64,000 bases of DNA from Escherichia coli (GTDB lineage Bacteria > Pseudomonadota > Gammaproteobacteria > Enterobacterales > Enterobacteriaceae). The DNA is taken from assembly GCF_003334305.1 (NCBI RefSeq), contig NZ_QOWS01000001.1; one strand, given 5' to 3'. The translations under genes and the position numbers were made by a program. The notes under the pieces are model-generated. The model was not told where the DNA came from, ran no database searches, and saw only the letters and a list, made by a program, of their open reading frames with translations. Positions 9,085-64,000 of the stretch are shown piece after piece. Positions within the stretch are counted from its first letter, which is position 1; each line of letters begins with the position of its first letter.

Positions 9085-9177
9085 TTTCTGACGGGCAGAA
9101 AGCCGTCGCCCGTACTCATCAAGCATACCAAAACCTGGCGCTGACGCCGGGTTTACTGGCATGAAGGGAAAATCATT

Positions 9178-10428
9178 ATGGATATAATGAGAAGTGTTGT
9201 GGGGATGGTGGTGTTACTGGCAATAGCATTTCTGTTGTCAGTGAATAAAAAGAGCATCAGTTTGCGCACGGTTGGAGCCGCACTGCTGCTGCAAATCGCT
9301 ATTGGTGGCATCATGCTCTACTTCCCACCGGGAAAGTGGGCAGTAGAACAGGCGGCATTAGGCGTTCATAAAGTGATGTCTTACAGTGATGCCGGTAGCG
9401 CCTTCATTTTTGGTTCGCTGGTTGGGCCGAAAATGGATGTCCTGTTTGACGGTGCGGGTTTTATCTTCGCCTTTCGCGTACTTCCGGCGATTATTTTCGT
9501 TACTGCGCTCATCAGTCTGCTGTACTACATTGGCGTGATGGGGCTGCTGATTCGCATCCTTGGCAGCATTTTCCAGAAAGCTCTTAACATCAGCAAAATC
9601 GAATCTTTTGTCGCAGTCACAACTATTTTCCTCGGGCAAAATGAGATCCCGGCGATCGTTAAACCGTTTATCGATCGCATGAATCGCAACGAGTTGTTTA
9701 CCGCAATTTGTAGCGGGATGGCGTCCATTGCTGGTTCGATGATGATTGGTTATGCCGGAATGGGCGTACCAATTGACTACCTGTTAGCGGCATCGCTGAT
9801 GGCGATCCCAGGTGGTATTTTGTTTGCACGTATTCTTAGCCCGGCCACCGAGCCTTCACAGGTCACATTTGAAAATCTGTCGTTCAGCGAAACGCCGCCA
9901 AAAAGCTTTATCGAAGCGGCGGCGAGCGGTGCGATGACCGGGCTGAAAATCGCCGCTGGTGTAGCGACGGTGGTAATGGCGTTTGTCGCAATTATTGCGC
10001 TGATCAACGGCATTATCGGCGGAATTGGTGGCTGGTTTGGTTTCGCCAATGCCTCTCTGGAAAGTATTTTTGGCTATGTGCTGGCACCGCTGGCGTGGAT
10101 CATGGGTGTGGACTGGAGTGATGCCAATCTTGCGGGTAGCCTGATTGGGCAGAAACTGGCGATTAACGAATTCGTCGCTTACCTGAGTTTCTCCCCATAC
10201 CTGCAAACGGGCGGCACGCTGGAAGTGAAAACCATTGCGATTATCTCCTTTGCGCTTTGTGGTTTTGCTAACTTTGGTTCTATCGGTGTTGTCGTTGGCG
10301 CATTTTCGGCTATTTCGCCAAAACGCGCGCCGGAAATCGCCCAGCTTGGTTTACGGGCGCTGGCAGCAGCAACGCTTTCCAACCTGATGAGTGCGACCAT
10401 TGCCGGGTTCTTTATTGGTTTAGCTTGA
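9178..10428 (+). CDS. psuT: NupC-family nucleoside transporter PsuT (YeiM), 416 aa
   Basis: 416-aa polytopic membrane protein; very similar to the ORF at 12365..13615. Confidence 0.9.
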   Translation: MDIMRSVVGMVVLLAIAFLLSVNKKSISLRTVGAALLLQIAIGGIMLYFPPGKWAVEQAALGVHKVMSYSDAGSAFIFGSLVGPKMDVLFDGAGFIFAFRVLPAIIFVTALISLLYYIGVMGLLIRILGSIFQKALNISKIESFVAVTTIFLGQNEIPAIVKPFIDRMNRNELFTAICSGMASIAGSMMIGYAGMGVPIDYLLAASLMAIPGGILFARILSPATEPSQVTFENLSFSETPPKSFIEAAASGAMTGLKIAAGVATVVMAFVAIIALINGIIGGIGGWFGFANASLESIFGYVLAPLAWIMGVDWSDANLAGSLIGQKLAINEFVAYLSFSPYLQTGGTLEVKTIAIISFALCGFANFGSIGVVVGAFSAISPKRAPEIAQLGLRALAAATLSNLMSATIAGFFIGLA

Positions 10429-12265: not shown

Positions 12266-12364
12266 GCGTTGATAACAAGCCGGGCCGATAGCGCAAGATG
12301 CAGGCCCGGCTATCTCTGATGGGCAGAAAGCCGTCGCCCAATATGACATGAAGAGATAATCACT

Positions 12365-13615
12365 ATGGATGTCATGAGAAGTGTTCTGGGAATGGTGGTA
12401 TTGCTGGCAATTGCATTTTTGCTGTCAGTAAACAAGAAGAAGATCAGCCTGCGTACCGTTGGCGCGGCGTTAGTGTTACAGGTTGTGATTGGCGGCATTA
12501 TGCTTTGGTTACCGCCAGGGCGTTGGGTCGCTGAAAAAGTCGCTTTTGGCGTGCATAAAGTGATGGCGTACAGCGACGCGGGTAGCGCATTTATCTTCGG
12601 TTCGCTGGTCGGTCCGAAAATGGACACGCTGTTTGATGGCGCAGGATTTATCTTTGGTTTCAGAGTATTACCGGCAATTATCTTCGTTACAGCACTGGTG
12701 AGTATTCTCTACTACATCGGTGTGATGGGGATTTTAATTCGCATTCTCGGCGGTATCTTCCAGAAAGCGTTAAATATCAGCAAGATCGAGTCATTCGTCG
12801 CGGTCACTACCATTTTCCTCGGGCAAAACGAAATTCCGGCAATCGTCAAACCCTTTATCGATCGGCTGAATCGCAATGAATTATTTACAGCGATTTGTAG
12901 TGGCATGGCCTCGATTGCTGGTTCGACAATGATTGGTTACGCCGCACTGGGCGTGCCTGTGGAATATCTGCTGGCGGCATCGTTAATGGCGATCCCTGGC
13001 GGGATCTTGTTTGCCCGCCTGTTAAGTCCGGCAACGGAATCTTCTCAGGTTTCCTTTAATAACCTCTCTTTCACCGAAACACCGCCAAAAAGCATTATTG
13101 AAGCCGCTGCGACAGGGGCAATGACCGGGCTGAAAATCGCCGCCGGTGTAGCGACAGTTGTTATGGCATTTGTCGCCATCATTGCGTTAATTAACGGTAT
13201 TATCGGCGGCGTTGGCGGCTGGTTTGGTTTTGAACATGCCTCGCTGGAGTCCATTTTAGGTTACCTGCTGGCCCCACTTGCGTGGGTAATGGGTGTTGAC
13301 TGGAGTGATGCAAATCTTGCCGGGAGTTTGATTGGACAGAAACTGGCAATAAATGAATTTGTCGCTTATCTCAATTTCTCACCCTATCTGCAAACGGCTG
13401 GCACTCTGGATGCTAAAACCGTGGCGATTATTTCCTTCGCGTTGTGCGGTTTCGCTAACTTTGGTTCTATCGGGGTGGTGGTGGGGGCGTTTTCTGCGGT
13501 TGCGCCACACCGTGCGCCGGAAATCGCCCAGCTTGGTTTACGCGCGCTGGCGGCGGCGACACTTTCTAATCTGATGAGTGCCACCATTGCCGGGTTCTTT
13601 ATTGGTTTAGCGTAG
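12365..13615 (+). CDS. nupX: NupC-family nucleoside transporter NupX (YeiJ), 416 aa
   Basis: 416-aa paralogue of psuT with near-identical sequence along its length. Confidence 0.9.
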   Translation: MDVMRSVLGMVVLLAIAFLLSVNKKKISLRTVGAALVLQVVIGGIMLWLPPGRWVAEKVAFGVHKVMAYSDAGSAFIFGSLVGPKMDTLFDGAGFIFGFRVLPAIIFVTALVSILYYIGVMGILIRILGGIFQKALNISKIESFVAVTTIFLGQNEIPAIVKPFIDRLNRNELFTAICSGMASIAGSTMIGYAALGVPVEYLLAASLMAIPGGILFARLLSPATESSQVSFNNLSFTETPPKSIIEAAATGAMTGLKIAAGVATVVMAFVAIIALINGIIGGVGGWFGFEHASLESILGYLLAPLAWVMGVDWSDANLAGSLIGQKLAINEFVAYLNFSPYLQTAGTLDAKTVAIISFALCGFANFGSIGVVVGAFSAVAPHRAPEIAQLGLRALAAATLSNLMSATIAGFFIGLA

Positions 13616-55330: not shown

Positions 55331-57331
55331 TCATCCTTGTTGCTGAAGCATGGGGAATAATTGTTCGCAAAGTAAAACACCGTTATTCATTGCTTCTACC
55401 CGTGCCTCGCTTTCTGTATTACGAAATTGTCCCAACACATGTGCCAGCCGATAAAAACCGACCGCGGAGAGGTCATTCGCCAGCAACTCTGCCTGACTAA
55501 TAGCGCTCTGTTCCTGATAGCGCCAGCCGTTATGGAGCAGTTGAATAAGTAACGCCTGGCAGCGCATCAGCAACTGATGAGCGGTAGACGGCACAGGCAA
55601 AACGCTGGCAGAAGGTAGCGGTGCCACAGGCGCAGTTTCTGCGTCCAGCGCCCAGGCGCGGGTTTTTGTCATCATCACCCGTGGTTCCAGTGTCAATTGC
55701 CCATCAACAAAACTGACAAAGCCAGAAACCAGACTCACGGGGTCGTCTGTTTGTTGCAAAAGCGCCGCCATGCGTTCAACGGCAAAAGGAGAACAGGCAG
55801 ATGCCGGAAGGGATAACGTCAGGAGATTATCTTCACCTTCGCCGCTGATTACCTGCGCATCCAGCGTCTGGCGGCTGCTATCCCAACCGAGCGAAATACA
55901 CTCAGCGACCGGCAGAATAAATAAGTTATCGACCTGATTAAGAGGCCGTATGCAGGCGGGGGGACGCTGGCGTAAATATTCCCGCAAAGCCACAATGCCC
56001 GGCTGGCGTAACGGCGCGCTCAACATTTGCCAGGCATCAGGCGACAGCGGCACAACGCTGCTTAAGCGGTTGCGGGTAGCTAACAGCAGCTCGCCATCGG
56101 CACTGCGTTTTGCTGCTTGTGAAACAATTTGCCCACCCGCCAGTGCGCCAGCCTGAAAACTAAACAGCCGACGCGTAGCTGCCGGTGAGTTTTCCTGTTC
56201 ACTTCGCGGCCAACTGCGCGAAAGGTGCAAAATACTGCCGGTGTCGGGATCGGTAAACCAGATGCGTAAACCATAATGCTCAATATCCTGCCAGCAACGC
56301 ATACCTAAAGACACCAGCCGCAGATGATCAAGCTTTGCTTCTCCGGCAATGCCAGAGCCAACGACCGTGCGCCACGGCACAGGAGGAACTTCACCAACAC
56401 TGTCGCGCCGGGCCATCTCTTGTGCGCAATTTAATCGACTGTTTAATGCCGCAAGCTGACGTAAGCATTCTCCGGCATGATAGTGGCTGGCGCGGGCGTG
56501 GAAGGCATCAACGCTTGCCCGTAGCTGTCGTAGTGATTCACTCACCCATCGCCAGTTGCAGCGTTCCGCCGCCTGCTGCGCGCGACTGAAAGCGGCCTCG
56601 TAGTGAATAAGCGGCTGGCTGATGCCGCCCAGCCATAATGCCTGGCTTAATTGCTGAACATATTGACGACACGCGTTACCCTCGTCGTTGGCAAACGGAT
56701 CGTCAGATGATGTGACGTGTTCGCTGCGCATCTGCCAGATTAAATGAGTAAATTCCGCTTGCTGAGTTTTGGCCTCGACGAAGGCCTGCACAGCCAGTAC
56801 GACATGTTCGCAAAGTGTGCCTTCAATACAATCACAACGGGCGAAACGAATACTGCTGCGGGAATAAAAACGCACATCGCTCATCGGTAAGCGGGCAGAG
56901 GGAATTTCGCCCGGCGTACAGAACAACTCAATGGTGATGCCTTTAGCGACCAACGCCTGTGCGCGTTTGCGGGTGGCATCGGGCAGGGTAGCCAGTTCTT
57001 CCAGCCAGATTGCCGGATCCCACGCTTCTTCTTTTTCCGTAGGCTGGGCGGTAGTACAAAGTCGTTGATAACTTAACACAAGCATCACGCGATGACGGCA
57101 CATACCGCTGGCCCCGCAGCTGCACTGAGCCTCTTTCAGTGCCTGGCTGTTCGCCAGCTGGGTACGGACACCGTCACTGAAGGTGGCGATTAAAGCGCTG
57201 TTCTCATGGCTGATTTCCGGGACGTTGCCATTTTCCAGTTCCTTAAGACTGCGCTTAACAAAACCGGCATTGCTTAACGCCGTCAGGGCCTGCGGTGTCA
57301 GTTCTAATAATTCCGGACGTAGTGAATTCAT
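55331..57331 (-). CDS. yehQ: SWIM zinc-finger domain protein YehQ, 666 aa from this start
   Basis: ORF 55331..57355; start assigned to ATG 57331 because it forms an ATGA overlap with the yehP stop; Cys/His cluster near the N-terminus (CSCGASGMCRH). Confidence 0.85.
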   Translation of the reverse strand: MNSLRPELLELTPQALTALSNAGFVKRSLKELENGNVPEISHENSALIATFSDGVRTQLANSQALKEAQCSCGASGMCRHRVMLVLSYQRLCTTAQPTEKEEAWDPAIWLEELATLPDATRKRAQALVAKGITIELFCTPGEIPSARLPMSDVRFYSRSSIRFARCDCIEGTLCEHVVLAVQAFVEAKTQQAEFTHLIWQMRSEHVTSSDDPFANDEGNACRQYVQQLSQALWLGGISQPLIHYEAAFSRAQQAAERCNWRWVSESLRQLRASVDAFHARASHYHAGECLRQLAALNSRLNCAQEMARRDSVGEVPPVPWRTVVGSGIAGEAKLDHLRLVSLGMRCWQDIEHYGLRIWFTDPDTGSILHLSRSWPRSEQENSPAATRRLFSFQAGALAGGQIVSQAAKRSADGELLLATRNRLSSVVPLSPDAWQMLSAPLRQPGIVALREYLRQRPPACIRPLNQVDNLFILPVAECISLGWDSSRQTLDAQVISGEGEDNLLTLSLPASACSPFAVERMAALLQQTDDPVSLVSGFVSFVDGQLTLEPRVMMTKTRAWALDAETAPVAPLPSASVLPVPSTAHQLLMRCQALLIQLLHNGWRYQEQSAISQAELLANDLSAVGFYRLAHVLGQFRNTESEARVEAMNNGVLLCEQLFPMLQQQG

Positions 57332-58464
57332 GACTGAAGATTCTCCGCAAGCCATGATGCCAGCTCGCCCGGTGTCATGGCGGCTATTTGTGCGCCGACA
57401 TTTACCAGCGCCTGGGCCGTATCGTGGTCATAGCAAGGTGTTGCTGTGCTATCGAGCGCTGCCAGTCCCAGCACTTTGATGCAGCTCTGGACACACTTTT
57501 TCACCTGATGCGTCAGTAATGATGATGAACCCCCTTCGTAAAAATCGCTCACGAGGATAATGACGCTTTTCGCTGGTTGTTCAATAAGTTGCCGACCATA
57601 CTCCACGGCACTGGCGATATTGGTCCCGCCGCCCAACTGTACTTTCATTAATAACTCTACCGGATCGGCAACGTCTGCCGTGAGATCAACGACGCTTGTG
57701 TCAAACGCCACCAGATGGGTACGAATGCCGGGTAACTGCCACAAACAGGCCGCCATCACCGCAGAGTGGATCACCGAATCGACCATCGATCCGCTTTGAT
57801 CAACCAGTAAGACCAGTTGCCATTGTTCGCTTTGGCGTTTAATGCGGCTGTTAAAGCGGGGGGATTCGATATACAACTTGCCGTGTTGCGGGTGCCAGTG
57901 TTGCAGGTTGGCGCGCAGAGTACTTTTGAAATCAAAGTTTCGCGCCAGTGGAATAAATGAACGGCGACGGCGATCGCGGACACCAGAAAAAGCCTGACGA
58001 ACTTCCTTTGCCAGTCGCGCCATAATTTCTTCAACAACCTGGCGCACTATCTGGCGGGCGGCAGCCAGTACTTCGGGATTCATCAGATGTTTGGTGTGCA
58101 AAACGGCGCGTAGCAGGCTTTCCGAAGGCTGCATACGTTCCAGCACGTCGAGATTTGTCACCACATCTTCAATGCCGTAGCGCAGTACGGCATCGCTTTC
58201 CAGCCGCTCAATCACCTGTTGCGGAAACAGCGTGTGGATACTGTTGATCCACTCAGGAGTGGTGAGATTTGAGCCACCTAATCCACCAGAGCGTTCACCA
58301 CGCTGGAGCCGTTCAGGATCGCGCCCATACAGCCACTCCAGCGCGTGATCTATCTGCCGGGCGTTGTCATCCAGCCCACAAAGCGTCGTTTCTGCCGCTT
58401 CGCCAAGAATTAATCGCCAGCGTTGTAGCTCACGGGTGGTCAGAAGATCGTTCAGTTCAGACAT
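57328..58464 (-). CDS. yehP: von Willebrand factor A (VWA) domain protein YehP, 378 aa
   Basis: ORF 57328..58692; start at 58464 (MSELNDLLTTRELQRW); VWA/MIDAS-like region (LLVDQSGSM). Confidence 0.88.
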   Translation of the reverse strand: MSELNDLLTTRELQRWRLILGEAAETTLCGLDDNARQIDHALEWLYGRDPERLQRGERSGGLGGSNLTTPEWINSIHTLFPQQVIERLESDAVLRYGIEDVVTNLDVLERMQPSESLLRAVLHTKHLMNPEVLAAARQIVRQVVEEIMARLAKEVRQAFSGVRDRRRRSFIPLARNFDFKSTLRANLQHWHPQHGKLYIESPRFNSRIKRQSEQWQLVLLVDQSGSMVDSVIHSAVMAACLWQLPGIRTHLVAFDTSVVDLTADVADPVELLMKVQLGGGTNIASAVEYGRQLIEQPAKSVIILVSDFYEGGSSSLLTHQVKKCVQSCIKVLGLAALDSTATPCYDHDTAQALVNVGAQIAAMTPGELASWLAENLQS

Positions 58465-60735
58465 GGAAAACTCCCCAGTGTTGCAGCGATGCCAGTGCCT
58501 GCTGTTCGAGTTGTTGATGATGTGCAATGGCTTGCGGTGGACAATGCAACGGCATTTGCAGTGCCGAAACGGGAAGTTGCGCCAGTTGATAATGCTCAAG
58601 CACCTGATGCGCCAGCGTTCCGCGTTCTCGTGGCGGTAGCCAGGCCATCGCCGCGCGTAAATCGGGCAGGGCATTGATAAAATCGGCATCACTTAGTTGA
58701 TTTAAATGACTGCTGAAACCGGCGATAAATGTCGGCTGACAGGCCAGTTGATGACGGGCTAATGCCAGCAAACCTTGCAGCGCCTCGCCGGATTGTGCCG
58801 GGGATAACTGCGCCAGCATCGTCAGCGCCGCTTCGGCACTGGCGTTGGGATGTTCCAGACGCATTAGTGCGCCAAGAACCGCGCCGCGATCCAGCGCCGG
58901 GGCATGAATCGCCTGACTGCGTCGCTCCAGTAAGGCTACCGCCGCAGAAAGCGAAACGCCGGATAAATTAACGCCGCTATGTAGATCGCGCAGAATATGG
59001 CAAAGCGCTTGCCAGCTATGCAGGTGAGCGTGAAACTCCTTTTCATCCGGTCTGCCGTTAGATTCACACAGCCACAGCGTGCGATCGATAGCGCGCATAA
59101 CGTCGTTTGTAATATCTGCGCGCCTTGCATACCGCTAATTTCATCCAGCCGCCATAAGGCATATAGCACTTCCAGCGCCTGGCCCATTTCGGCAAATTGA
59201 TTTTCCTGGGCGATTAATAATGTGAGTTGCTCCAGTAATTGTTGACTGAAGGACGCCAGACCCGCTAACGCCGCCTGGCTAAGACATGTGGTGATACTGC
59301 CGATTCCACCCGCGTCCAGCATATCGGCTTCTAATTTATGGCGTGCGGCTTCCTGGAGTGTTGCACCAAAGCAGGCGGCCTCAATCAATGCCGCATGCTG
59401 GCTAAGCGGGCGGGTTAATTTCCAGCGTTCTTCACCGTTGCCTGCAAGTGTCAGTGTGCTTCCCTGCTGGCGTACAATCCCTGGGATCTCCAGTATTGCC
59501 AGCCGATGTAACACCTGACTTTGCGCTAGTCCATTGGGGTTAAAGCGATTTAAGGTAAGCTCCGCCGGAAGAGAGATTGCGGTACGTTCCAGTTCGCAGG
59601 TGACATCTTTTGGCAGAGGCGGTTGTGGCGTAGAAGGGGCAAGTTTACCGAATCCGTCACCCGCTAATGTGTCTATCAACGTTAGCAGAATCGGATCGGT
59701 ATCGGGATGAATAACGCCGCGATAGCTCCACGGCAACGGCGCATTCAGGGCTTCTTTAATCAGCGAGCCTGCTATGGCATCCAGCCAGTCAGTGCGTAAC
59801 GGTAGTGTATGACCGCGCAACTGTGCCAGCGCCATCGCATGCAGATGAGCGGCAGCCATATCCGCGGTCGAAGCAGGCAACTTGTGCTGGCGCAAACGGG
59901 TGAGAACCGTTTTTAGCAGTTGTTCTCCCGCCTGCTGTAAGCCCCACTGCCAGCACCAGTTTTGCCAGACCGGGGCAGGCATTCCGGAAAGGTATCCTGC
60001 CAGCACATCAAGGCGCTTTTCACTGTAGGGGGTGAGATAACAACCTGTAACGGCATCTGCCAGCGACGGCAATTCTGGCGTGTTAATTTCCTGCGGGCAT
60101 TCGCGCCACATTTTTGCCAGTACCGGAGCGTGCCAGCCACCGCAGACAACTAACACGTCGCCATTATTTTGCTGCATCGCCCATCCAATCCAGCGGGCCA
60201 TAAAGGCTTCGCGCAGACGATTGAGAGCATCTCCGGGGGAGTCGCCCCGCAGTTGGGCAAAATAGTGCGCCAGTGCAGAGGGTAATGCAGTTTGCTGGCT
60301 TTCATCTTCGAACAAGTGATCCCACAGGGTGTCGCTGTTATCCATGCGGGTGGCACGCAGCAGCAAGGCCTGGCTTTCCTCTTGCGTATCAGGCGAATCG
60401 TCCACTTCTTCACTCTGCGCCCAGCAAGGCAAATCGATGAAGTAAGTTTGTGCCTGAATACGACGTGCGGCTTGTAGCGCCTGCCACTCCGGCGAAAATT
60501 CAGCAAATGGCGTCCAGGCACCACGCCCGGGGGCTGCACCGTCCTGATACTGGCAATAACTGTAAATAGCTACCGGAAGCTGGTGGGCTAAAAACAGTTC
60601 GTCTACCCGGTCATTAAAATCAGCCGGGCCTTCAATCAATACGTATCGTGGCCGCTGGCTTTCGATTAACGATTTCACCAGCCGGGCGCAGGCCGGACTA
60701 TGATGCCGGATGCCGACAATTAACGGCTCGCTCAT
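58457..60735 (-). CDS. yehM: YehM, interrupted by an apparent frameshift (fragments 58936..60735 and 58457..59098 in different frames)
   Basis: Two overlapping minus-strand ORFs span 2279 nt (not a multiple of 3); N-terminal fragment starts MSEPLIVGIRHH at 60735; the C-terminal fragment ends overlapping the yehP start. Either a pseudogene or a sequence indel. Confidence 0.7.
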
Positions 60736-60745
60736 GCATCTTTCC

Positions 60746-61834
60746 TCACGGCAGGCGGTGGCGGGCTTGATAATAAGCCTGCCAGTGAGCTTCTTTATGT
60801 GTGGCGACTCGTTGTTCGAAGTAACGGCGCAGACGAGCGCGATCTTCTTCGTTATCTTTGACGATGGTTCCGGCAATGCAGTCCACCAGGTCGGCTGGCT
60901 CACCTGCGCGATTCGCTAAAAACCAGGCGCGGACGCCTACGGCGTGGGCCACGTTCACGGCTTCAGCGGTGGACATAATCGCTGTTAGTGTATCCATTGA
61001 CGTTTTCTTTTCGCCGTTGGCACGCAGATCGCGGAAGGTGCGGACCAGTAACTCCAGTACCGCGTCAGGCACTTTATGCGGAATACCGCTATGGGCCAGC
61101 AAACGCGCCGAAGCACTGGCGACAAGCTCCAGCTCCTGGGCGAAATCCATAATCGGAAAGACAGTTTCAAAATCGAAGCGACGCTTTAGCGCAGCACTCA
61201 TTTCATTGACGCCGCGATCTCGGGTATTGGCAGTGGCAATAATATTAAAGCCTTCTCGCGCATAGAGCTGACTGGCTTCACCAGTGAGTTCCGGCACCGT
61301 CATCACCCTGTCAGAAAGCATACCTAACAGACAGTCTTGCACTTCCAGCGGTGTACGCGTTATCTCTTCAAAACGGACGATTTTGCCGTCGCGCATTCCC
61401 TGGTAAAGCGGGGCAGGGACCAGCGCTTCCGTTGATGGACCATGATTGATAAGCAGGGCGTAGTTCCAGCCGTACTTGATTTGATCTTCGGTAGTAGATG
61501 CGCCGCCCTGGATGGTTAACCCGGCATCGCCGCTAATAGCGGTTGCCAGTAATTCAGACAGGAGAGATTTTGCGGTGCCAGGTTCCCCCACCAACATCAA
61601 ACCGCGCCCGGTGGCAAGAGTGACTAACATGCGTTCGACAGCGGAGGGACTAATCACCACTTTACGGCTAATATTTTGCGCGCTATCGCCAAGGATAAAA
61701 GCACGGGCCGCAGGCAAACTTAACTGCCAACCGGGCGGGCAAGGAGCGTTATCATTTTGTTTTAATTTTGCCAGTTCATCGGCGTATAACACAGCAGCAG
61801 GCGGACGCTGCAGATGATTATTCTGCGGTGACAT
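60746..61834 (-). CDS. yehL: MoxR-like AAA+ ATPase YehL, 362 aa
   Basis: ORF 60746..61915; start at 61834 (MSPQNNHLQRPPAA); Walker A GEPGTAKS. Confidence 0.9.
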   Translation of the reverse strand: MSPQNNHLQRPPAAVLYADELAKLKQNDNAPCPPGWQLSLPAARAFILGDSAQNISRKVVISPSAVERMLVTLATGRGLMLVGEPGTAKSLLSELLATAISGDAGLTIQGGASTTEDQIKYGWNYALLINHGPSTEALVPAPLYQGMRDGKIVRFEEITRTPLEVQDCLLGMLSDRVMTVPELTGEASQLYAREGFNIIATANTRDRGVNEMSAALKRRFDFETVFPIMDFAQELELVASASARLLAHSGIPHKVPDAVLELLVRTFRDLRANGEKKTSMDTLTAIMSTAEAVNVAHAVGVRAWFLANRAGEPADLVDCIAGTIVKDNEEDRARLRRYFEQRVATHKEAHWQAYYQARHRLP

Positions 61835-61944
61835 ATATTCATCCCTGAAATGTATTAATGAAATAAACGATATTTTACGCGCAATAAATGTTTGGCGCAT
61901 TAGTTGTTTGAGCAAAAAATATCTGGAAAGCAGATCGCAGTAAA

Positions 61945-62028
61945 TAAAAAAACCTGCTGGTGAGGCAGGTTCTTTTATTTACTATTTTCAGGCCTAACAC
62001 CACAGCCTGTGCAACATCGTGTTCCAAC
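61945..62028 (-). ncRNA. Candidate antisense sRNA antitoxin (OrzO/OrzP-type), about 84 nt
   Basis: Minus-strand TTGCAA-17 bp-TATAAT promoter (-10 at plus 62035-62040); predicted 5' end near 62028; strong terminator (AACCTGC-loop-GCAGGTT then TTTTT on minus); first ~20 nt complementary to the toxin leader at 62175-62194. Confidence 0.6.
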
Positions 62029-62034
62029 GAACGA

Positions 62035-62085
62035 ATTATAACCACGGCTGGACCCCGTTGCAATTAAGATAATGAGATTTATAAT
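62035..62085. promoter_or_regulatory. Back-to-back sigma70-like promoters sharing one palindromic -35 hexamer (toxin mRNA rightward, antisense sRNA leftward)
   Basis: Shared TTGCAA at 62058-62063; plus-strand TATAAT at 62080-62085 (16-bp spacer); minus-strand TATAAT at 62035-62040 (17-bp spacer). Confidence 0.55.
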
Positions 62086-62266
62086 CCAGACCGTTGGGAC
62101 GTTGCGCCGGATCGAACCTATTTCAAGTCCTGGCTACCGGACGGGGGGTGCTGCAGGTGGTGCCCTGATCCGGAGTGCAACATCGTGGTCCAACATACGT
62201 AAACCAGTATCGACAGGCAGTGTAAGGGTAAGGTGCTGGTGTTGCGCTCCTTAATAAGGAGAGCGG

Positions 62267-62356
62267 ATGGACTCGCTGACACAAAAGTTAACCGTGCTCA
62301 TTGCTGTACTGGAGCTATTAGTGGCTCTGTTACGGTTGATTGATTTGTTGAAGTAA
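62267..62356 (+). CDS. zorO/zorP: 29-aa hydrophobic peptide, type I toxin candidate (ZorO/ZorP-type)
   Basis: ATG 62267, AAGGAG 5 nt upstream; MDSLTQKLTVLIAVLELLVALLRLIDLLK, one predicted TM helix with charged ends; about 174-nt leader from the predicted start near 62093. Family name is from memory; which copy is zorO and which zorP is not resolved. Confidence 0.75.
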   Translation: MDSLTQKLTVLIAVLELLVALLRLIDLLK

Positions 62357-62377
62357 CGGGCAAATTGAAACGCATCT

Positions 62378-62402
62378 AAGGGGGAAAACCGCTTCCCCCT
62401 TT
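62378..62402 (+). terminator. Terminator hairpin of toxin mRNA copy 1
   Basis: AAGGGGGAA-aaccgc-TTCCCCCTT perfect 9-bp stem 22 nt after the stop; short U-tract. Confidence 0.5.
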
Positions 62403-62554
62403 AATAAAATGATTACTGTTTTTATTAATTCATCATATAACTCATTTTTATTTATAAATTCATCGATTTTATATTCAACGCACCATTTGACCGGGATGTG
62501 AATATTTATGTTGGGCTATTGGCAAAAAATATCTGGAAAGTAGATCGCAGAAAA

Positions 62555-62636
62555 TAAAAAAACCTGCTGGTGAGGCAGGTTCTTTTATTTACTACAGTGA
62601 CGCTAACTTGCTGATTGTGCAACATTTCGTACCAAC
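62555..62636 (-). ncRNA. Candidate antisense sRNA antitoxin, copy 2 (OrzO/OrzP-type), about 82 nt
   Basis: Minus-strand -10 TATAAT at plus 62643-62648 and shared -35 TTGCAA at 62666-62671; terminator 62561-62581 with U-tract; 5' region complementary to the copy-2 leader at 62783-62802. Confidence 0.6.
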
Positions 62637-62642
62637 GAATAA

Positions 62643-62693
62643 ATTATAACCATATCCACACTCCATTGCAATTCAGTGAGTGAGATTTATAAT
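62643..62693. promoter_or_regulatory. Back-to-back promoters of copy 2 sharing a palindromic -35
   Basis: TTGCAA at 62666-62671; plus-strand TATAAT 62688-62693; minus-strand TATAAT at plus 62643-62648. Confidence 0.5.
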
Positions 62694-62874
62694 CCTGCCC
62701 GTTGGGAGGTTGTGCCGGATCGGACCAATTTTAAGTCCTGGCTGCCGGACGGGTGGTGCCGCAGGCGGTGCCCTGATCCGGAGAGCAACGTTTCGTACCA
62801 ACATACGTAAACCAGTATCAACAGGCAGTGTAAGGGTAAGGTGCTGGTGTTGCGCTCCTTAATAAGGAGAGCGG

Positions 62875-62964
62875 ATGGACACGCTGACACAAAAGTTAAC
62901 CGTGCTCATTGCCGTACTGGAGTTATTAGTGGCTCTGTTACGGTTGATTGATTTGTTGAAGTAA
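62875..62964 (+). CDS. zorO/zorP: 29-aa hydrophobic peptide, type I toxin candidate copy 2 (ZorO/ZorP-type)
   Basis: ATG 62875 with AAGGAG upstream; MDTLTQKLTVLIAVLELLVALLRLIDLLK, differing from copy 1 only at residue 3 (S to T). Confidence 0.75.
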   Translation: MDTLTQKLTVLIAVLELLVALLRLIDLLK

Positions 62965-62985
62965 CGGGCAAATTGAAACGCATCT

Positions 62986-63010
62986 AAGGGGGAATACCGT
63001 TTCCCCCTTT
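62986..63010 (+). terminator. Terminator hairpin of toxin mRNA copy 2
   Basis: AAGGGGGAA-taccgt-TTCCCCCTT stem. Confidence 0.5.
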
Positions 63011-63018
63011 AAGAAAGC

Positions 63019-63073
63019 TATACTCGTCATACTTCAAGTTGCATGTGCTGCGACTTTAATTATCTAGAGTATA
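63019..63073. repeat. Truncated ERIC-like element abutting the yehK 3' end
   Basis: TATACTCGTCATACTTCAAGTTGCATGTGCTGCG ... AATTATCTAGAGTATA: ERIC terminal arms with the central part missing. Confidence 0.55.
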
Positions 63074-63391
63074 TTATTCTATTTCTTGGTTGAATATATT
63101 CTGTAGTTCACGATTAAAAATTGCTATTACAGTTTCAGGTGATTCACCTCGTAATTTCCGCTCATCAATACACTCATCTCTTATATAAATCAACGCATCA
63201 TTTATTAGCGGGTCAGCATCTTCTCGATCACGTTGATGAAATGTTGGATGTAGCCGGAATCGCTCCAGTCGATAGACGGAACCTGTAAATAATTCAGAGC
63301 ATTTATGGATCTCAAGTCTGAAGGAAAACGGATCTTCAGGTACAGGGACCTCATAATCGTAAATAGCAACTAGCTCTTTTTGCACGATCAT
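63074..63391 (-). CDS. yehK: Uncharacterised protein YehK, 105 aa
   Basis: 105-aa ORF (MIVQKELVAIYDYEVPVPEDPF...) between yehI and the repeat island. Confidence 0.85.
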   Translation of the reverse strand: MIVQKELVAIYDYEVPVPEDPFSFRLEIHKCSELFTGSVYRLERFRLHPTFHQRDREDADPLINDALIYIRDECIDERKLRGESPETVIAIFNRELQNIFNQEIE

Positions 63392-63451
63392 CGCTTTCCC
63401 CGCTGGTAAGTCGTGTAGATAACGGGCAGTCGCATCACTGCCCGCTGTGTT

Positions 63452-64000
63452 TTAATGGAAAATGACGTCAGGTGCGCTTAACGCCTCACTCAAATCAAAC
63501 ACATCAAGTTCGGCAAAAGTGACGGATTTATTGTCACGGTACACTCGAAGAGAACGGAAGCTCATTAGCGCTTTGCTATCAACATTGTAGTGGTTAAAAC
63601 CGGGTGAAAACTTAAGGACCAGCCGGTACTCGCCCAGGTCATAGACAAATGCATCCTCATAGCCTGACTCCCAGCCTTTGTATCGCATTCCCATAAGCTG
63701 CCCAACGGTAGCGGATTTACCTTCCCAGCGAGTCAGGCTGTTACTGGTTGACTCATCAGGTGTGAGCAGCACCGTGCACCGCGCCAACTGGCGAAAAGGC
63801 GGCATAATTTCGTAATCGGCAAAAAGCTGTGCAAATTCACTGCGCATTTCTACTGTCATTTCTAACGGGTGGGCAATGCCAATCAGAGCGTCCGCAGGCA
63901 GGTCAATTGGCTCATCTTGCGCATTGCAGAACTCCCCCTCTGCGGCCACACGAAAGGCGTTGAGTAAACAACGCGGTTCATTTGCCGGATAAGCCCCCCA
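63452..64000 (-). CDS. yehI: YehI (DUF4132 protein), C-terminal part only (gene continues beyond window end)
   Basis: Minus-strand open frame from the window edge to the stop at 63452; the track ORF 63452..63949 is its C-terminal portion; position before yehK. Confidence 0.8.
   Translation of the reverse strand, partial: WGAYPANEPRCLLNAFRVAAEGEFCNAQDEPIDLPADALIGIAHPLEMTVEMRSEFAQLFADYEIMPPFRQLARCTVLLTPDESTSNSLTRWEGKSATVGQLMGMRYKGWESGYEDAFVYDLGEYRLVLKFSPGFNHYNVDSKALMSFRSLRVYRDNKSVTFAELDVFDLSEALSAPDVIFH

Follow-up and report, generated by a model that had tools for sequence, protein, structure and literature searches.

A single-base deletion splits yehM of Escherichia coli A7 into two overlapping reading frames, probably as a recent loss-of-function mutation

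The yehLMPQ cluster encodes a MoxR ATPase, a DUF5682 protein, a vWA domain protein and a SWIM zinc-finger protein, and is placed downstream of the DUF4132 genes yehI and yehH. In Escherichia coli A7, which according to its record was isolated from orangutan faeces in the USA, the cluster lies on the minus strand of the window, by which we mean the whole 64,000-nt stretch of DNA that was analysed. This window is the exact reverse complement of positions 3068999-3132998 of the A7 record NZ_CP028767.1 (64000/64000 bases). The genes of the cluster, and the parts into which yehM is divided, are listed below in window coordinates, with H15 and K-12 as the genomes used for comparison.

55331-57331, minus strand: yehQ, SWIM zinc-finger protein, last gene of the cluster, intact (WP_001371026.1, as in H15)
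57328-58464, minus strand: yehP, vWA domain protein, intact (WP_001292767.1, as in H15); its ATG overlaps the yehM stop
58457-60735, minus strand: yehM pseudogene, DUF5682 family (equals AOY58_RS14590 of NZ_CP028767.1, noted 'frameshifted')
58457-59134, minus strand: downstream frame of yehM, native residues 549-759 (frame translation)
58936-60735, minus strand: upstream ORF of yehM, 599 codons plus TAG (translation compared with the restored protein)
Between 59092 and 59091, minus strand: deletion site, one base missing (base-by-base comparison with H15; blastn against K-12)
60746-61834, minus strand: yehL, MoxR-type AAA_5 ATPase, first gene of yehLMPQ, intact (Pfam AAA_5; weak matches to GvpN and to the MadB ATPase)

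MoxR-vWA pairs elsewhere are chaperone-like remodelling systems. With its frame restored, YehM matches the Pfam family DUF5682 (PF18934) over residues 20-715 of 759 (E = 2.1e-97), and both YehM fragments are tagged DUF5682 in precomputed matches. Searches against NCBIfam returned no match for YehM or YehQ and only weak, sub-threshold ATPase- or chelatase-like matches for YehL and YehP, and a PADLOC search for anti-phage defence gave no match for YehL, YehM, YehP or YehQ. An Rfam scan of positions 58000-64000 found nothing within yehM, its only hits being Orz antitoxin RNAs upstream of yehL. A literature search on CP028767, NWPZ01, SRR3951615, DUF5682 and yehLMPQ returned nothing relevant. From other contexts, yehL and yehM are described as de-repressed only in hns/stpA mutants (PMC3686432), and lineages 2 and 3 of Shigella sonnei have lost yehM, yehL and zorO in a 7-kb deletion (PMC12795559). 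Two neighbouring annotations vary between genomes: yehQ is annotated at 1845 nt in K-12 and at 2001 nt in A7 and H15, and the DUF4132 gene upstream of yehI, which is intact in A7 (3795 nt; L008 43112-46906), is represented in K-12 by a yehF CDS and a yehH pseudogene.

In A7, yehM runs on the minus strand from 60735 to 58457, a span of 2279 nt (3n-1) in comparison with 2280 nt for intact alleles. The start frame begins with the ATG at 60735 (MSEPLIVGIRHH...) and closes at the TAG at 58938-58936. Its 599-aa product begins with native residues 1-548 and continues out of frame for 51 residues (59091-58939), and the C-terminal 211 residues of YehM are missing from it. The second frame, in -1 relative to the first, has its last upstream stop at the TAG at 59137-59135 and hence is open from 59134; it ends at the TGA at 58459-58457, within the ATGTCTGA overlap with the yehP ATG (58464-58462). 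The first in-frame start of this downstream frame is the ATG at 59098-59096, which is put into frame by the deletion, and the ORF from this codon encodes 213 aa, in which native residues 549-759 are preceded by Met-Arg. Between yehL and yehP, A7 does not have one continuous ORF of ~759 codons; the first frame stops after 599 codons. A first-pass annotation of the sequence had reported the limits and stops of the two frames, the overlap with yehP and the 2279-nt span, and all of them proved correct when the sequence was read again.

That annotation had also proposed a single-base deletion somewhere within 58939-59134, and had described yehM of K-12 as a single large ORF. Both proposals hold. 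The gene in K-12 MG1655 (b2120) is 2280 nt long with 759 codons, and the deletion lies between 59092 and 59091, leaving the A7 gene 1 nt shorter than the 2280-nt genes of H15 and K-12. The missing base is nt 1645 of the yehM gene, where codon 549 begins. Alignment with the K-12 gene by blastn gave 96.97% DNA identity with 68 mismatches and one gap, which falls at this same place, gene nt 1645. The missing G is the sole difference between yehM of A7 and that of H15, its nearest intact allele (WP_001294421.1, 759 aa), and when it is put back into the A7 gene, the encoded protein is identical to the 759 aa of H15. At the site, the window reads TTATGCGCG^CTATCG (TTATGCGCGCTATCG), H15 reads TTATGCGCGGCTATCG and K-12 reads TTATGCGCGACTATCG. 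The deleted position is thereby occupied by a G of a GG doublet in H15 and by an A in K-12; in the surrounding sequence, GCGCG[G]CTATCG, the run of identical bases is only two long and there is no long homopolymer. An allele with the restored G is expected to read GCGCGGCTATCG across the site. An A/T run at 59039-59044 had been put forward as one possible slip site, but this candidate was rejected: the sequence there is GAAAAG, with only four A, and it is unchanged in the intact alleles, the deletion lying instead at 59092/59091.

Synteny at the yehM locus is identical in A7, H15 and K-12, and the kind of disruption on which a PGAP-type frameshift call is based, a frame-breaking indel that close, intact orthologues at the syntenic locus do not have, is found against both H15 and K-12. 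Neither reference gene has the two-ORF layout; both are single ORFs. RefSeq already marks A7 yehM (AOY58_RS14590) as a pseudogene with the note 'frameshifted', and the frameshift is in this sense already known from public annotation. To the RefSeq note, our analysis adds where exactly the base was lost, that among complete genomes only A7 has the deletion, and that the same deletion recurs in other assemblies.

Among complete genomes, the two-ORF form is specific to A7 and is no general property of yehM. When the 2279-nt yehM was used as a megablast query against 5,426 complete E. coli genomes, a single record, A7, matched over the same length with 100% identity, and the next-best matches all spanned 2280 nt; yehM was unmatched in ~2% of these genomes. 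An 81-nt probe centred on the deletion site, for which the band of at least 99% identity corresponds to an exact match, found 4,655 matching records among complete E. coli genomes. Only one of these 4,655 records, again A7, matched the probe exactly, and the other matches listed all span 82 nt, indicating that the two-ORF form is strain-specific. The lesion is seen directly as a base difference from thousands of orthologous genes, and is no matter of statistics.

The first-pass annotation had offered two explanations for the broken frame, a strain-specific pseudogene or a sequencing indel. Under the latter, the deletion would be a sequencing or consensus-polishing artefact, the true A7 yehM would be intact at 2280 nt, and the missing G would be a base-calling deletion. 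Such an origin is consistent with the presence of the allele in only one complete genome, with single-base deletions being the commonest error type of long-read assemblies, and with the occurrence of a second gene lacking 1 nt, that of a P2 portal, within 164 kb in the same A7 record. However, the missing base belongs to a GG doublet and not to a homopolymer run, and across the 64-kb window the yehM site is the one and only indel between A7 and H15, against 10 substitutions. Among the 59 annotated features of the window, yehM is also the only pseudogene. One indel per 64 kb relative to H15, together with one pseudogene in 59 features, indicates that the local assembly is not indel-ridden.

The deletion is in addition present outside the A7 record. 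The exact 599-aa product occurs in a collection of 15 billion proteins drawn from NCBI and Logan, and six contigs that encode it were examined. In the draft GCA_002476345.1 (NWPZ01000001.1, a 385-kb contig), a 7.8-kb stretch is identical to the window with the deletion included, although the draft may share the data of CP028767. A Logan contig of 2272 nt from run SRR3951615, which may likewise share those data, spans the site and is also identical to the window. The presence of the deletion in both the separate NCBI draft and the Logan assembly makes an assembly artefact unlikely; should the draft, SRR3951615 and CP028767 rest on one body of data, all three would inherit any systematic error in it. 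The pseudogene is accordingly the favoured member of the pair, and we estimate a probability of about 0.8 that the deletion is a genuine, recent, lineage-specific loss-of-function mutation in A7.

The shortened portal gene belongs to a P2-type prophage and lies ~47 kb past the end of the window (record positions 3024570-3025603; L008 5571-6604). It is 1034 nt long, one base short, is annotated 'frameshifted', and switches frame near ...IPFQLMG. This frameshift may mark a second genuine pseudogene, or it may point to indel errors that occur now and then in the A7 assembly. The other broken genes in the 100 kb flanking the window in A7 are yejO, a pseudogene interrupted by an internal stop, and a small fragment. 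Such a flanking density of broken genes is compatible with a normal genome, and equally leaves room for occasional consensus errors.

If the deletion is genuine, ribosomes starting at 60735 would translate 548 native codons and then 51 out-of-frame codons before reaching the TAG at 58938-58936. The product would be without its last 211 residues, and since DUF5682 extends over residues 20-715 and residues from 549 onward are lost, roughly the final quarter of the domain would be removed. Translation would end ~470 nt before the yehP start, with the result that the normal ATGTCTGA stop/start overlap would be lost. Loss of this overlap between yehM and yehP probably lowers the expression of yehP and yehQ, and Rho-dependent polarity may possibly act on both genes. 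We infer that YehM function is lost in A7, and this loss would be tolerated as the yehLMPQ cluster (MoxR ATPase, DUF5682, vWA, SWIM) is H-NS-silenced and dispensable. The yehL, yehP and yehQ products of A7 have the same protein accessions as those of H15, and the absence of further decay indicates that the yehM lesion is recent and isolated. Such a pattern is consistent with a silent accessory gene that is decaying neutrally or nearly so.

A functional yehM in A7 is a less probable reading than an assembly error. Here, full-length activity would come either from a programmed -1 frameshift in the 59134-58939 overlap or from a split pair composed of residues 1-548 with their tail and the 213-aa C-terminal protein. 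The two ORFs together do encode all native residues (1-548 and 549-759), the deletion does put an ATG in frame two codons before residue 549, and gene callers predict the 213-aa ORF in one assembly. For programmed frameshifting, however, a scan of the overlap between 59134 and 58936 found no slippery heptamer of the form X_XXY_YYZ, the only base run there being AAAA. The two-ORF arrangement is also not conserved, as A7 stands alone among the 4655 matching records and K-12 and H15 each have one ORF, and this mechanism was rejected on these grounds. The genes dnaX and those of IS element transposases, which use programmed -1 frameshifting, resemble A7 yehM in that two ORFs overlap and the second is read in the -1 frame. 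They differ from it in that A7 yehM is without a slippery heptamer, its layout is not shared by its orthologues, and yehM normally consists of one ORF.

The split pair encounters separate difficulties. The 20 nt that precede the ATG at 59098 (CAGATATTACAAACGACGTT) contain nothing resembling a Shine-Dalgarno sequence, and termination-reinitiation is unavailable because this ATG sits inside the translated upstream ORF, the stop of which is 160 nt downstream. In addition, the 51-residue junk tail would stay on the N-terminal fragment. Slightly more improbable again is that the 213-aa fragment from ATG 59098 reassembles with the 1-548 fragment as a natural fission of DUF5682 at a tolerated boundary.

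A pseudogene caused by a genuine deletion places A7 yehM among well-known features. It is an ordinary single-base-deletion pseudogene of the sporadic kind carried by every E. coli genome, and is exactly such a feature as the 'frameshifted' pseudogenes that RefSeq/PGAP annotates in E. coli, with no difference between them. K-12 YehM (b2120, NP_416624.1) is the same gene at the same locus, yehI-yehK-yehL-yehM-yehP-yehQ-yehR, with 97.0% DNA identity. Relative to YehM of K-12 and H15, the A7 frame is broken at codon 549 and yields a 599-aa product instead of 759 aa. Other yehM loss alleles, including the S. sonnei 7-kb deletion, are sporadic like that of A7, but differ from it in the position or type of the lesion and in the lineages that carry them. 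Two of the related products, P0002 (600 aa) and P0014 (599 aa), arise from independent yehM frameshifts at other positions and have the same out-of-frame tail and stop as A7. The tail shared by these frameshifted products reads ...AIYIAALIYPAF.FLRR. The set of protein clusters P0002, P0014, P0018 and P0019, to which these products belong, also includes C-terminal YehM fragments of 243 aa, and one of the fragments, in E. coli DEC7A, is named 'yehO'. The gene names of K-12 go from yehM straight to yehP, and this gap, together with the 'yehO' fragments, may mean that in early sequencing the gene was divided into yehM, yehN and yehO.

The deletion has little significance of its own, as the cluster is H-NS-silenced and dispensable and the lesion is already flagged publicly. 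For annotators, it means that the 599-aa and 213-aa ORFs should be treated as pieces of one gene. For work on the YehLMPQ MoxR-vWA-SWIM system, A7 offers a natural yehM-truncation mutant, possibly polar on yehP and yehQ, and the deletion allele can serve as a unique marker of the A7 lineage.

Two further observations concern other parts of the window. The intergenic region between yehK and yehL (61908-63016) holds a tandem duplication of ~500 bp, with 88% identity between the copies, that contains two type I toxin-antitoxin loci of the zor-orz kind. Their toxin ORFs, of 29 aa each, lie on the plus strand at 62267-62356 (MDSLTQKLTVLIAVLELLVALLRLIDLLK) and 62875-62964 (MDTLTQKL...), and the Rfam OrzO-P antitoxin RNAs are on the minus strand at 61946-62021 (99.9 bits) and 62556-62629 (88.8 bits). 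The K-12 yehK-yehL spacer is only 306 nt long and matches the yehL-proximal 292 nt. This pair is the known system zorO/zorP, and zorO is listed beside yehL in S. sonnei (PMC12795559). Elsewhere, psuT and nupX (9160-10424 and 12346-13610) are nucleoside transporter paralogues with 79% DNA identity over ~1.27 kb, a paralogy that is already known.
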